Source of the DNA: Gemmatimonadota bacterium
Lineage (GTDB): Bacteria > Gemmatimonadota > Gemmatimonadetes > Palauibacterales > KS3-K002
Direction of reading: 5' to 3'
DNA length: 64,000 nucleotides
NCBI GenBank assembly: GCA_039586495.1
Contig: JBDHKG010000040.1
Span: forward strand, 6,681-70,680
The position numbers were made by a program, and so were the translations under genes. Below, in pieces: positions 24,559 to 49,893 of this stretch. Numbering within the stretch: position 1 is the stretch's first letter; the number at the start of each line of letters is the position of its first letter. A model generated the notes under the pieces. The model made no database searches and was not told the origin of the DNA. It saw only the letters and a list, made by a program, of their open reading frames with translations.

Positions 24559-26403
24559 CTATTGCTGTGCCCCGCGATAGGCCCGCAAGCCCCGCTCAAG
24601 CGAATCCACCTGCACGTCGGGAGCCCCCGCCGCTGCCGCCGAGTCCAGCGCCGCCCAGGCCGCGACGCTGTCGCCGGCTGCGACCTGAAACTCCGCCAAC
24701 TCGAGCCAGTCTTCCCAGGTCGCCGCCGTGCCCCCCAGGCGTATACGCGAAAGCTGGGCGCGGGCCGCTCGTGCGAACTCACCCTGGTTGGCGTAGGCGT
24801 CCGCTTCCAGGCCGAAGAAGATGGCGCGTTCGCCCACGGCCTCCCGACCCCGCGCCAGCGCTCGCAGCGCGCCCTCGTTGTCCCCCAGTCGGAGTCGGAT
24901 GACGGCCAGCAAGCTGTGGTGGTCGGCGTAATTGGGACCGTTCTCCACGGCGCGGGCCGCCATTGCCTCCGCCTCCACAAGCTCACCATGATCCTTCAAT
25001 AGCACGGCGAAGGCCGACAGGTAGGCGGGGCTGTATGGCCATACCTCGAGCGACCTTCGAAACCATTCCCGGGCGCCTACCCAGTCTCCACGACCGAGCT
25101 GACGATAGCCGAGCCACCAGAGGACGCGTGACGACTCCGGATGTTGGCGCTGCAGCTCGGTGAAGACCGTCTCTGAATCCTGCCACACAGGGTTCCTTCG
25201 AACGGTCACGACCGAGAAGCCGATGACCCAAACGGCAAGGCCGAGCGCCACCCAGCGACGCTGCGCGCGCCGGGCGCGCACAAGGAGCAAGGCGGCGATA
25301 ACCGAGACGGCCAGCGAAGGCAAGTAGAGTGTGCGCTCCGCCAACACGATCTCCGCCGCGATGATCAGGTTCGACACCGGGAGCAGCGCCACGGCAGCCC
25401 AACCGATGGCCATGCTGAACTCCGGCGCCCGCCGGTACAGAACCAGGGCGAGGATCACCGTCGCTAAGACCAGAGCAAAGCCCATCGCACCCAGCAGGGT
25501 GAGCTGACTTGCCGGCAAGATGACCGCCGGAGAGTAGTCAGCCGAGAGTTTGGCAGGAAACAGCAACAGCTCGTAGTAGCGTGGCCAGACGCGCGCCATC
25601 GTGAACAGGCGGGTCGAGAAGCTGGCGTCAGGTGCGAAGGTGCCCTTCGTGAGACTCGAGACCGGCTCACCCAGTACCGCCCAGCGGAGCACTAGATACG
25701 CGAGAAGCACGGTGGCCAGGCTGGCGAAGAGAGGTAGCCGCGTCCGCAGATAGGCTTTGCCGTCACCGATACGCCGGCTGGTGGCGAGCGGGAGATCCAG
25801 CAACAGCAACAAGGCGGGAAGAACAACGCCGACTTCCTTGGAGAGCACAGCGAGCGCATAGCTGGCGCTGATGACGACCAGCGCCACCCACGAGAGGCGA
25901 CCGCGCCGAGCCGCGTGCACGTAGGCCAGGCACGCCAGTAGCACGAAGGCGGCTGCAAGAGGCTCCGCTCGCCCGACCACGTTGGCCACGGCTTCCGTGT
26001 GGACCGGGTGCACCGCGAACACGACGCCACCGGCGAGAGCGGCCCACCAGGGAAAGAACCGCAAGAGCAGCAGGGCGAGCAGGGCTGTGACGGCCGCGTG
26101 CAGCAAGACGTTCGTGAGGTGAAAGCCGAAAGGCCTGCCGCCCCAGGTGCTCCAGTCCAGGGCGAAGCTGAGCATCGTCAGCGGCCGGTACAGACCGCTC
26201 CCAAAGCGCGCGGGCCAGTACTCGGCCGTCAGCAGCTCGGGGATTCGACCGAGTCCGTGCAGGAGATCACGGCTCTCTACAACGGAAACGTCATCGTAGG
26301 CGAAGCCGTTGGCGAGCGAGTTCGCGTAGACCAGGACAGACAACAGCGCCACGCCGCCGGCCACGATGATCCGCAGGCGTCTGGCATCCATCACGGTTTC
26401 CAC
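24559..26403 (-). CDS. TMTC-like GT-C membrane glycosyltransferase with C-terminal TPR repeats (putative protein O-glycosyltransferase)
   Basis: 614 aa; ~10 TM N-terminal domain with the first-loop motif NGFAYDDVSVV typical of TMTC/DUF1736-PMT-like enzymes; C-terminal TPR region. Confidence 0.6.
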   Translation of the reverse strand: METVMDARRLRIIVAGGVALLSVLVYANSLANGFAYDDVSVVESRDLLHGLGRIPELLTAEYWPARFGSGLYRPLTMLSFALDWSTWGGRPFGFHLTNVLLHAAVTALLALLLLRFFPWWAALAGGVVFAVHPVHTEAVANVVGRAEPLAAAFVLLACLAYVHAARRGRLSWVALVVISASYALAVLSKEVGVVLPALLLLLDLPLATSRRIGDGKAYLRTRLPLFASLATVLLAYLVLRWAVLGEPVSSLTKGTFAPDASFSTRLFTMARVWPRYYELLLFPAKLSADYSPAVILPASQLTLLGAMGFALVLATVILALVLYRRAPEFSMAIGWAAVALLPVSNLIIAAEIVLAERTLYLPSLAVSVIAALLLVRARRAQRRWVALGLAVWVIGFSVVTVRRNPVWQDSETVFTELQRQHPESSRVLWWLGYRQLGRGDWVGAREWFRRSLEVWPYSPAYLSAFAVLLKDHGELVEAEAMAARAVENGPNYADHHSLLAVIRLRLGDNEGALRALARGREAVGERAIFFGLEADAYANQGEFARAARAQLSRIRLGGTAATWEDWLELAEFQVAAGDSVAAWAALDSAAAAGAPDVQVDSLERGLRAYRGAQQ

Positions 26404-26414
26404 CGCGTCATCGC

Positions 26415-47854: not shown

Positions 47855-47967
47855 TCGGTCACGGGCCCGATCCGGCTCCGCGAACGATCGTGACCTCGGC
47901 CTCATCTCGCATCTCTGGGCAGGGAGCGTGGCGGGTGGTCAGGACGACCAGCACGGGCGCGAAGTGA

Positions 47968-49893
47968 ATGTGTGGCATCGCAGGCGCATTCGGATTCGGC
48001 GATCTTGAGCTGATACGGGCGATGACAGATGCCATCGCCCATCGCGGACCCGACGGTGAGTACTTCTATGAGGACGGGTCGGTCCGCATGGGGAGTCGCC
48101 GCCTCGCCATCTTGGACCCGGAGCACGGGACCCAGCCCATGCTGAACGAGTCCGGCACGGTTGCGGTGATCTACAACGGCGAGATCTACAACTACCCGGA
48201 GTTACGGGCCCAGCTCCTGGCGAAGGGCCACATCCTGAAAACCCGCTGCGACACCGAGCTGCTCCCACATCTTTATGAGGACGAGGGGATCGAGTTCGTC
48301 CGCCGGCTGAACGGGATCTTCGCCTTCGCCTTATGGGATCGCGGGGCGAAGAAACTCTTTCTCGTGCGCGACCGGCTGGGAGTGAAGCCACTGCTCTTCG
48401 CCCACAGCGGAACTCGCCTCGCCTTCGGCTCGGAAGCGAAGGCGATCCTGGCCAGCGGCTTGGTCGAGCCGGCGCTCGACGAGATAAGCCTGCATCTGAC
48501 GATGAACTTACGCTACATCCCGGGCGAGCGGACCTTGTTCACGGGCATTCGGCGCTTACCCCCGGGAAGCATCCTCGAGGTGGCTGAGAGCGGACTGCGG
48601 CTGCGGGAGTACGGACAGATCGACTGGAGCCCGGAGCCGCAGAAGCTCGCTGAGTGGATTGAAGCCATTAGGGAACACGTCGAGCAAGCGGTGAACCGCC
48701 AGCTCCTCTCCGATGTCCCGGTCGGCGTATCCCTGTCGGGTGGTGTCGACTCCAGCGGCCTCGTGGCGATGATCAGGAAACGTCACTCCGGACCGCTCAA
48801 GACCTTCACGCTGGGATTCAACGAGCCCTGGGACGAGAACGAAGATGCGCGCTTCATCGCGGAGCGCTTCGGGACGGAGCACCACGAGATCGTCCTGCAC
48901 GAGCCGGCGATGCACTACTTGAGAGAGGCGATCTATTTCACCGAGGAACCCAAGGTCAACTGCCTGCAGCTTTATCTTCTGCATCGCTTCATCGGGTCGC
49001 ACGTGAAGGTCGCATTATCGGGGTTGGGCGGGGACGAGCTGTTCGCCGGTTACGATTTCTACAGGTACTTGCGGCGAATGCGCTTGCCGCGGGCCGTAGT
49101 CCCACGTGGCCTGGCCAACGGCGCTCTGCGACCAGCTATGGACCTCGCCGCGCGTGTCACGGCCAGCCTGAGCTTCCCGGCCTTCGACCTTTATGCGCGC
49201 GGACTGGAGTGGATCGGCTCGCTCCACGATGGCGCGCGCCACTACCTGCTGCTGCGGAACGCCTGGGACTTTAACCCCGCTCTCCTTCGACGTGTCTACA
49301 GCCGCGAGTTCCTGGCCCGCCTCGAGGCTCGTTGCCGCGAGAGCTTCGACGGCTACTTCCCGGCGGAGCGCCCTGTCGAGGGCGAGGCGCTGCGCGCCGA
49401 GTTCCGCACCAAGCTGGTGAATGACCTCCTGCACAATGAGGACACCATGTCGATGGCGCATTCTGTCGAGTCGAGGGTACCGCTCCTGGACCTCGAACTC
49501 GTGCAGCTTGCCGCCAGGATCCCGGACGAGCTCCGTTTCCATGGGGGTCAGAAGTGGCTGCTCAAGAAGGCCTTCCAAGGCAGCCTTCCGGACCGCACCC
49601 TGAGAAAGAGGAAATGGGGTTTCACGGTTGACCCCGTGGAGCAGTACAAGAAAGACCTTCGGACGCTGGCTCTCGAATTGCTCACCACCAAGCGGCTGCG
49701 CAGAGAAGGTATCTTCAACCCTCATTTCGTGACCACCGTCCTCAACGCTCGCCCGCACCACGGTCTGCGCTGGCACTACTTCATGCTGTGGCAGATGATC
49801 GGCTTGCAGTTCTGGCGCGGGCTGTTTCTCGAAGGAGACAGGACCGACCTGCTCGCGGGCGGAGCGCGGACGAGTTTCCGGGCCGGCGGTTGA
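47968..49893 (+). CDS. asnB: Asparagine synthetase (glutamine-hydrolysing) family amidotransferase
   Basis: 641 aa; MCGIAG N-terminal nucleophile Cys2, GATase-7 domain, PP-loop SLSGGVDSS. Confidence 0.85.
   Translation: MCGIAGAFGFGDLELIRAMTDAIAHRGPDGEYFYEDGSVRMGSRRLAILDPEHGTQPMLNESGTVAVIYNGEIYNYPELRAQLLAKGHILKTRCDTELLPHLYEDEGIEFVRRLNGIFAFALWDRGAKKLFLVRDRLGVKPLLFAHSGTRLAFGSEAKAILASGLVEPALDEISLHLTMNLRYIPGERTLFTGIRRLPPGSILEVAESGLRLREYGQIDWSPEPQKLAEWIEAIREHVEQAVNRQLLSDVPVGVSLSGGVDSSGLVAMIRKRHSGPLKTFTLGFNEPWDENEDARFIAERFGTEHHEIVLHEPAMHYLREAIYFTEEPKVNCLQLYLLHRFIGSHVKVALSGLGGDELFAGYDFYRYLRRMRLPRAVVPRGLANGALRPAMDLAARVTASLSFPAFDLYARGLEWIGSLHDGARHYLLLRNAWDFNPALLRRVYSREFLARLEARCRESFDGYFPAERPVEGEALRAEFRTKLVNDLLHNEDTMSMAHSVESRVPLLDLELVQLAARIPDELRFHGGQKWLLKKAFQGSLPDRTLRKRKWGFTVDPVEQYKKDLRTLALELLTTKRLRREGIFNPHFVTTVLNARPHHGLRWHYFMLWQMIGLQFWRGLFLEGDRTDLLAGGARTSFRAGG

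Follow-up and report, generated by a model that had tools for sequence, protein, structure and literature searches.

Which molecules receive the sugars handled by the glycosyltransferases encoded within a type IV pilus locus of a Gemmatimonadota bacterium, and is the major pilin, PilA, one of them? The window analysed here (the whole 64-kb stretch of contig JBDHKG010000040.1; G+C 62-68%) carries on its minus strand a complete type IVa pilus locus, as judged from Pfam scans of its genes. Two blocks of glycosylation genes are inserted in the pil backbone, one in the pilR-pilA interval (block 1, 24559-32289) and one in the pilC-pilS interval (block 2, referred to below as the cassette, 35959-49893). 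The initial annotation had taken positions 24559-49893 as one 25-kb island, most simply a dedicated system for O-glycosylating PilA or other pilus and surface proteins. That stretch spans both blocks plus pilSR: pilS and pilR (32360-35165) lie inside it and the right-hand 14 kb is the cassette, which is found without pil genes elsewhere, so that we reject a single pilin-dedicated island. We propose a narrower reading, to which we assign a probability of about 0.6. Glycosyltransferases of the GT-C type encoded close to pilA would O-glycosylate the major pilin from polyprenyl-phosphate monosaccharide donors, with one of them, GTC1, recognising the pilin; GTC1 to GTC3, and probably GTC4 as well, would act in the periplasm as an O-glycosylation system with that pilin as its main acceptor. 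The precedent is TfpW, the pilin arabinosyltransferase of Pseudomonas aeruginosa group IV strains (Pa5196/PA7), which uses a polyprenyl-phosphate monosaccharide donor and modifies pilin Ser/Thr residues (10.1101/2020.04.19.049825). The proposal starts from direct observations of the genes present, of the folds and conserved catalytic motifs of their products, and of synteny across the phylum. Gene calls relied on codon-position G+C, which left one clear gene per stretch, and domain scans used Pfam and NCBIfam, covering the window genes apart from those between pilN and pilQ.

GTC1 (24559-26403, minus strand) is a GT-C glycosyltransferase that bears tetratricopeptide repeats (TPR) and resembles TMTC proteins and TfpW. 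Its model, built from an alignment of 61 homologues (pLDDT 92.7), has 11 transmembrane (TM) helices, a cytoplasmic N-terminus and a long first external loop, and ends in a TPR domain predicted to be periplasmic (Pfam TPR at residues 407-516, all-helical repeats at about 410-614 in the model, and TPR matches in the PDB). Loop 1 holds the motif Y36-D37-D38-V, in which D37 and D38 are invariant across the 61 homologues, as are H132, H135, E137, K189, E190, R240, E356 and R357. The TM7-TM8 loop reads Y276-x6-P283-A284-x7-P292, both P283 and P292 being invariant and Y276 kept in at least 90% of the sequences. When structures were compared, the closest solved folds proved to be protein O-mannosyltransferases, not ArnT, and the best of them was yeast Pmt4. 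The segment FAVHPVHTE matches LFAVHPIHT of human TMTC3 as quoted in PMC7801869, and the TMTC_DUF1736 family, the sole recurrent non-TPR family, was matched by 40 of the 61 GTC1 family members (E≤0.01; best 3.8e-5). The membrane domain gave no sequence match in the PDB and none in plasmids (tblastn), and the best named relative is a metagenome-assembled genome (MAG) at 95% identity; by homology, the window belongs to Gemmatimonadota. From its sequence and model, GTC1 appears to be an intact enzyme of the protein-glycosylating type.

The three genes directly upstream of pilA on the same strand, reported initially as the GT-C complement, are confirmed as GTC1, GTC2 and GTC3. The locus nevertheless carries five GT-Cs of four families rather than three, GTC4 and GTC5 having been overlooked. 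GTC3, GTC2 and GTC1 form a tight operon on the pilA strand, with a 4-bp overlap (GTC3 stop/GTC2 start) and an 11-nt gap. GTC2 (26415-28064, minus strand) is a GT-C by its fold, with D41-D42-G-I-Y45-A46 in loop 1 and a small alpha/beta periplasmic domain at the C-terminus; it has no Pfam or NCBIfam match, and its family of 93 relatives occurs in Gemmatimonadota only. GTC3 (28061-30151, minus strand) is a PMT_2-type GT-C resembling LA_3751/LA_3752 (PMT_2 30.5 bits, cut-off 26.1; NF047440 5.6e-16), whose loop 1 has D127, conserved in 19 relatives, in a motif that is D-S here and D-E in most relatives. The pattern D(D/E)..YA ascribed to all three GT-Cs is strictly present in GTC2 only, while GTC1 has Y36-D37-D38 and GTC3 has D127-S. 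GTC4 (about 30289-32289, plus strand) is divergent from GTC3; its longest open reading frame (ORF) begins at 30151, and the likely start is a GTG at 30289 that follows GGAGG. It is a paralogue (51% identity) of GTC5 (35959-38007, plus strand; LIC_10190-like, NF047510), which is the first gene of the cassette and has the motif D180-W-D182..Y186-H187. Both score below the PMT_2 threshold (19.2 bits for GTC4, 23.8 bits for GTC5), and their family counts 5489 representative relatives. By hhalign (95.9%, E 5.5e-9) it shares homology with the GTC2 family, with DWD aligned on the YDD of GTC2, and the GTC1 and GTC2 families are distantly related (92.8%). Neither GTC2, GTC3 nor the GTC4/5 profile had a sequence match in the PDB. 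The assignment to the GT-C class is based on fold for GTC1 and GTC2, on PMT_2 for GTC3 and on profile homology to the GTC2 family for GTC4 and GTC5.

The link between these genes and pilA was examined in other genomes by using the GTC1 alignment to scan GTDB genomes, one for each species, keeping the best 80 loci, nearly all of them from Gemmatimonadota or Longimicrobiales MAGs, and mapping all window proteins on them. Loci with at least 1.5 kb visible downstream of the last TPR-GT-C gene were taken as informative (n=56). A pilA homologue lies within 2.5 kb downstream of the TPR-GT-C gene on the same strand in 38 of them. Seven more belong to pil clusters of another arrangement, according to our reading of the gene maps, and of the remaining 11, five are orphan paralogues and six lie in contigs whose labels name other phyla. 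The genes recur in the order pilS, pilR, GT2 (a family 2 glycosyltransferase), one to four GT-C genes, pilA in one or two copies, the histidine kinase HK2, the response regulator RR2, and, further on, pilM-Q. In called genes, the adjacency of TPR-GT-C and pilA was found in L001 at 55% identity and in L002 (Longimicrobiales) at 41%; overall, relatives as distant as 32-41% identity, among them Longimicrobiales, still have the TPR-GT-C gene directly upstream of pilA. Pilins at this position are 50-90% identical to PilA and pilR is 60-85% identical in related loci, the HK2/RR2 pair follows pilA directly in most of them, and GTC2-type and GTC3-type genes are recurrent neighbours, the latter often divergent from pilS. 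In the 28 pilR-kinase intervals that are fully visible, the copy number of TPR-GT-C follows that of pilA (Spearman 0.61, p 5e-4, uncorrected for phylogeny); one copy of each was counted in 8 intervals and two of each in 10. Since the adjacency recurs phylum-wide, the arrangement is not due to chance, and because a pilin gene is kept behind PMT-like GT-Cs throughout the phylum, these pili are probably coated with sugar, by a route that has received little study. We found nothing in the literature on the pili of Gemmatimonadota or on pilin glycosylation in this phylum.

Two aspects of these loci may be noted in their own right. In many of them (among L009-L074, e.g. L009, L014, L016, L022 and L065), pilA is present as two diverged genes in tandem, and the TPR-GT-C as two or three tandem paralogues. 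The Longimicrobiales locus L002 (GCA_036381495.1) has a Wzx-type flippase, AsnB, a GT4, a GT2, a double GT2, a PMT_2 protein and the TPR-GT-C upstream of pilA, with rmlA, rmlC, an epimerase and a YfhO-type GT-C downstream; given this different set, the sugar genes around pilA vary between lineages.

The pilA gene itself (23941-24318, minus strand) encodes the major pilin, as first annotated; it is a type IVa N_methyl pilin of 125 amino acids (aa; Pfam 1e-09), with the leader MNRKG/FTLIELL and two cysteines near the C-terminus. A pattern search found a sigma54-type element, TGGCCC-N5-TTGC (24381-24395, minus strand), 63 nt upstream of the pilA start, the sole intergenic match across 20-55 kb. 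This element probably functions as a promoter, and genes for two sigma54 activators, PilR and RR2, flank the pilA locus. With a promoter of its own for pilA, the modification would act on the pool of pilin in the inner membrane before assembly. Downstream of pilA, a terminator-like hairpin can be read from the sequence (23875-23906, minus strand; AGCGCGGAGG-GTAT-CCTCCGCGCT, then ATTCTTTT), at which a consensus terminator scan made no call.

On the donor side, the window contains one predicted gene for a lipid-phosphate-sugar synthase, that of a GT2 enzyme of the polyprenyl-phosphate sugar synthase type (38183-39187, plus strand; Pfam Glycos_transf_2; DPMS/ArnC/AglJ/PpgS-like), which lies in the cassette. 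It has two C-terminal TM helices, its PDB matches are restricted to DPMS 5mlz (8.8e-13) and ArnC, and its best NCBIfam matches, AglJ, PpgS and ArnC, are all sub-threshold. Most relatives encode, between pilR and the GT-C, a shorter GT2 that is devoid of TM helices and likewise matches these polyprenyl-phosphate sugar synthases best. The GT2s of both kinds match DPMS best, a similarity that does not in itself specify the sugar. Because the GT2 of the cassette is the only such synthase seen in the 64 kb, the cassette probably feeds the pilin GT-Cs. The scanned window genes encode no DPPR synthase or DprE1/E2 domains, and we found no GtrA-like component of the D-arabinofuranose pathway in the window; as this pathway is lacking there and a DPMS/ArnC-type GT2 is present instead, arabinofuranose is not expected to be the sugar.

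The following scheme of donor, acceptor and order of action is inferred from folds, motifs and synteny. The GT2 would transfer a monosaccharide from a nucleotide sugar to polyprenyl phosphate at the cytoplasmic face of the membrane, and the lipid-linked sugar would be flipped, for which an LPG_synthase_TM-type protein of the cassette is the candidate. The periplasmic TPR domain of GTC1 would bind prepilin or pilin, and its YDD site in loop 1 would transfer the sugar to Ser/Thr residues of the globular domain of the pilin. GTC2, GTC3 and GTC4 may extend the glycan or modify further sites.

Several observations weigh against this scheme or narrow it. GTC1 itself scores only 19.0 bits against TMTC_DUF1736 (PF08409; residues 260-295), below the Pfam cut-off of 27, and its likeness to TfpW, as to the human TMTCs, is drawn from published descriptions. 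Since pilA has its own predicted promoter and is separated by 240 bp from GTC1 on the same strand, the two may be transcribed separately. The composition of the pilin is not diagnostic of glycosylation: Ser and Thr make up 27% of the globular part of PilA, an unremarkable share, and show no enrichment in the disulfide loop (0.20 vs 0.30 elsewhere). Orphan TPR-GT-C paralogues occur away from pil genes in Gemmatimonadota (L021, L063, L068 and L071), and wherever one of the best 80 loci lies in a contig labelled as another phylum, the family member has no pilin near it; the pilin is therefore not the sole possible acceptor of this family. In other genomes the cassette is also found without pil genes, as described below.

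That the GT-Cs decorate a non-protein glycoconjugate of the envelope (lipopolysaccharide or lipid A, exopolysaccharide, a cell-wall polymer) in the manner of ArnT, GtrC-type enzymes or YfhO, their position among pil genes reflecting co-regulation, seems to us unlikely. GT2-fed GT-Cs classically modify O antigen, lipid A and teichoic acids (PMC11127046; PMC5836110), the cassette with a GTC5-type enzyme lacks pil genes in other contigs, and in some Longimicrobiales loci pilA is found among genes for Wzx and YfhO and rml genes, all of which would suit such a role. However, the GT-C slot directly upstream of pilA in the pilR-pilA interval is maintained phylum-wide while the surrounding glycan genes vary, GT-C copy number follows that of pilA, and the TPR-bearing 11-TM architecture of GTC1 is so far found only in the protein glycosyltransferases TMTC and TfpW. 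Moreover, no ArnA/ArnB/ArnD-type domains and no lipid A genes were detected by Pfam among the predicted genes at 13-56 kb. A true ArnT/lipid A system with Ara4N, which the initial annotation had set out as one contrary outcome, is thereby rejected: the nearest folds are protein O-mannosyltransferases, GTC1 does not belong to the ArnT family and the scanned window has no Ara4N genes.

It is also rather improbable, in our view, that these enzymes are general protein O-glycosyltransferases, like actinobacterial PMT or Neisseria PglL, for which the pilin is just one abundant substrate. The large size of the TPR-GT-C family (2031 relatives at E≤1e-5) would agree with this, as would eukaryotic TMTCs and PMTs, which each serve classes of substrates (for TMTCs, PMC7801869), and the Gemmatimonadota orphans in unrelated contexts. 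One of these orphans (L068) lies beside a Big_2/leishmanolysin-type surface protease and ion-transport genes; it is 41% identical to GTC1, compared with 34-37% for the pil-linked copies of the same MAG (L015). On the other hand, the copies at pil loci show a tight and specific association with pilA, including matching duplications, linkage to pilE is not typical of PglL and other general systems (10.1101/2020.04.19.049825), and the orphan paralogues could themselves cover other substrates. As for the idea that GTC1 is a structural factor of pilus biogenesis, a TPR protein like PilF, PilW or Tgl with a polytopic anchor and no glycosyltransferase activity, we find it very hard to sustain. Some homologues are indeed labelled 'Tfp pilus assembly protein PilF' or 'TadD' by JGI, yet the PilF/PilW match is a generic TPR similarity, GTC1 has a full GT-C fold with YDD and charged residues invariant over 61 sequences, and a lipid-phosphate-sugar synthase of the GT2 family is the usual neighbour of the TPR-GT-C. 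Pilin O-glycosylation by the pilA-proximal GT-Cs is thus the reading we retain as most likely, and it is well supported by comparative evidence. The same activity had been put forward on the TfpW precedent, and synteny and architecture now support it, although not over the full 25 kb. The initial observation was largely right yet incomplete, and its interpretation was right in its core but overly broad.

The cassette deserves separate consideration. The genes listed for the region at the outset (GT2, flippase-like protein, GT4, DUF354, two methyltransferases, a fused MDR+Gfo/Idh/MocA protein and AsnB) are all present according to Pfam and NCBIfam; that list left out a soluble protein of 428 aa with no detectable family (39184-40470, plus strand). 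This protein is translationally coupled to GT2 and MT1 and has no Pfam, NCBIfam or PDB match; genes of about 400 aa without a Pfam match occupy the equivalent position in the cassettes of L085-L089, the likeness being one of position and size only. Next on the plus strand come MT1, a class I S-adenosylmethionine (SAM) methyltransferase (40467-41339, Pfam; its ATG start at 40467 overlaps the upstream stop), a bi-domain oxidoreductase that fuses MDR (ADH_zinc_N) and Gfo/Idh/MocA (41305-43485, Pfam) and has homologues 65-79% identical, some of them labelled Acidimicrobiia/Acidimicrobiales, and a GT-B-like DUF354 protein (43498-44556, Pfam) also found in the L086 and L087 cassettes. Two genes lie on the minus strand, encoding the SAM methyltransferase MT2 (44590-45213, Pfam) and a GT4 glycosyltransferase of the GT-B type (45326-46564, Pfam Glycos_transf_1 2.3e-27). 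They are followed on the plus strand by the flippase-like LPG_synthase_TM membrane protein (46793-47854, Pfam 9.1e-20, TIGR00374), a candidate flippase for lipid-linked sugar by its family, and by an AsnB-type glutamine amidotransferase (47968-49893, Pfam, TIGR01536).

Overlapping subsets of the cassette genes make up the neighbourhoods of L085-L089. Each contains the flippase-like gene, which stands directly after the bi-domain oxidoreductase or at most one gene from it, and across these loci the gene pool includes two to three methyltransferases and a GT-C of about 700 aa. The L089 cassette adjoins pilSR in another Gemmatimonadota genome, the L085 cassette of a further Gemmatimonadota genome does not adjoin pil genes, and L086, L087 (Acidimicrobiales) and L088 have no pil genes within 10 kb, L086 and L088 being two unplaced metagenome contigs. 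As such neighbourhoods also occur away from pil genes, block 2 is self-contained and mobile, and not intrinsic to the pilus locus. From its gene content, we regard the cassette as a separately evolving glycosylation module of the three-component type that in this lineage occupies the pilC-pilS interval. As argued above, it probably supplies the pilin GT-Cs, but it may also, or instead, serve an acceptor of its own, and its role in pilin O-glycosylation is uncertain. Our literature search found nothing on this cassette, which represents a widespread, uncharacterised glycosylation module.

A more elaborate possibility, which we offer tentatively, is that pilin O-glycans of Gemmatimonadota are built wholly in the periplasm by up to five GT-Cs. 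In such an assembly line, an enzyme of the TMTC/TfpW type with a TPR 'substrate arm' would start the chain, enzymes of the GTC2, GTC3 and GTC4 types would extend it one sugar at a time, with polyprenyl-phosphate monosaccharides as donors, and in some lineages the mobile cassette would supply an unusual sugar, amidated or methylated. If so, it would be a bacterial counterpart, and possibly an evolutionary relative, of eukaryotic TMTC O-mannosylation, and variation in gene number would diversify the pilus surface, for instance against pilus-specific phages. Pilin glycans of Pseudomonas block such phages (10.1101/150227; PMC11841053), and variable GT-C content may therefore reflect phage pressure. 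Experimental knowledge of pilin glycosylation by GT-Cs comes from a single enzyme, TfpW, of a few Proteobacteria, where the donor pathway is an oddity of mycobacterial type. Should the proposal made here hold, the GT-C route would be the rule in a poorly studied phylum of soils and sediments, with ordinary DPMS-type synthases and multi-enzyme versions. The bacterial TPR-GT-Cs, whose database label is only 'tetratricopeptide repeat protein', would be linked to TMTCs and provide tractable bacterial models.

The remainder of the pilus backbone, all on the minus strand, is as follows. The genes pilC (49965-51167, Pfam T2SSF), a pilT-like ATPase (51244-52488, Pfam) and pilB (52530-54254, Pfam T2SSE and MshEN within the pilC/pilT/pilB group) lie at 49965-54254, beyond the presumed island as originally described. 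The histidine kinase gene pilS (33714-35463; Pfam 6TM_PilS (partial), PAS, HisKA, HATPase_c) precedes the gene for the sigma54-dependent response regulator PilR (32360-33727; Pfam Response_reg, Sigma54_activat and HTH_8). The pilS ORF (33714-35165) misses most of the 6TM sensor domain and encodes 483 aa, versus 570-601 aa in relatives. When the PilS proteins of L001 and L089 were used as tblastn queries, the sensor part was found at about 35188-35463 in frame -2 and the rest at 33735-35192 in frame -3, so pilS is apparently frameshifted, owing perhaps to an error of assembly, perhaps to genuine inactivation. On the other side of pilA are HK2, a HAMP histidine kinase (22545-23795, Pfam), and RR2, a sigma54 response regulator (21180-22544, Pfam); two sigma54-type two-component pairs thus flank pilA, PilSR upstream and HK2/RR2 downstream. 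Minor pilin and PilX genes (about 18029-20957), pilM (16806-17852), pilN (16093-16761) and the secretin gene pilQ (13233-15062) complete the backbone. Directly downstream of pilQ, an 880-aa protein with no Pfam match (10497-13139, minus strand) may be a further pilus component. Beyond pilB are a 2115-aa SprA_N protein of the type IX secretion/gliding translocon family (56032-62379, minus strand) and then an M28 peptidase (55067-56035, minus strand). The opposite flank (1623-10168, minus strand) is of housekeeping type, with genes for a MoCF_biosynth-domain protein, gcvT, hslU/hslV-like AAA and proteasome-type subunits, a GIDA-family (trmFO/gid-like) protein and topoisomerase I.

How do these genes compare with known systems? 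TfpO/PilO and PglL also glycosylate type IV pilins, and tfpO is likewise next to pilA. Unlike the GT-Cs described here, these enzymes have a Wzy_C domain, which Pfam found in no protein of the island, and transfer preassembled oligosaccharides linked to undecaprenyl diphosphate. In its overall design the locus agrees with three-component periplasmic systems, in which a GT2 lipid-phosphate-sugar synthase feeds a GT-C that acts on O antigen, lipid A or teichoic acids (PMC11127046; PMC5836110). Like GtrA/GtrB/Gtr*, ArnC/ArnEF/ArnT, CsbB/YfhO and the GT136 pentofuranose systems, it encodes a GT2 synthase, a candidate flippase and a GT-C together. It differs in having several GT-Cs and an LPG_synthase_TM protein in place of the GtrA, SMR (ArnE/F) or MATE flippase, no dedicated small flippase of these types having been found at the locus. 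It further adds tailoring genes that are absent from the three-component scheme (the fused oxidoreductase, AsnB, the methyltransferases, DUF354 and the 428-aa protein), and the acceptor proposed for the pilA-proximal GT-Cs is a protein.

GTC1 shares with the PMT/POMT clan its best solved-structure match, Pmt4. The features of the TMTC family include 11 TM helices, a loop-1 DD and a non-cytoplasmic C-terminal TPR array (PMC7801869). GTC1 resembles TMTC1-4 in all three, in the cytoplasmic N-terminal end of its GT-C domain and in its FAVHP(V/I)HT segment, and its TM7-TM8 loop may be of the DUF1736 type. It departs from them in being bacterial, in its sub-threshold DUF1736 score, in the presumed use of an undecaprenyl-type rather than a dolichyl lipid, and in its proposed acceptor, pilin instead of cadherin. 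Nothing linking TfpW with TMTCs was found in the literature. TfpW itself has 646 aa, 11 TM helices, DDX in periplasmic loop 1, YX6PFX7P in loop 4 and a periplasmic C-terminal TPR domain; its gene adjoins pilA and its homologues are listed for Proteobacteria only (10.1101/2020.04.19.049825). The claim that a PMT/TMTC-like trio had never been described takes no account of TfpW, already a TPR-bearing GT-C with 11 TM helices. By size (about 600-650 aa), 11 TM helices, loop-1 DD, C-terminal periplasmic TPR domain and proximity to pilA, GTC1 is much like TfpW, and Y276-x6-P283-A-x7-P292 in its TM7-TM8 loop has the same spacing as the YX6PFX7P of TfpW, with Ala for Phe, as compared by description. 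The differences concern the phylum, which is Gemmatimonadota here, and the donor pathway, which for TfpW provides decaprenyl-phosphate-arabinofuranose (DPPR synthase, DprE1 and DprE2) and in the window has a DPMS/ArnC-type GT2 instead. They extend to gene order and company, since tfpW is downstream of pilA whereas GTC1 is upstream of it and, unlike TfpW, has two to four additional GT-Cs from other families beside it.

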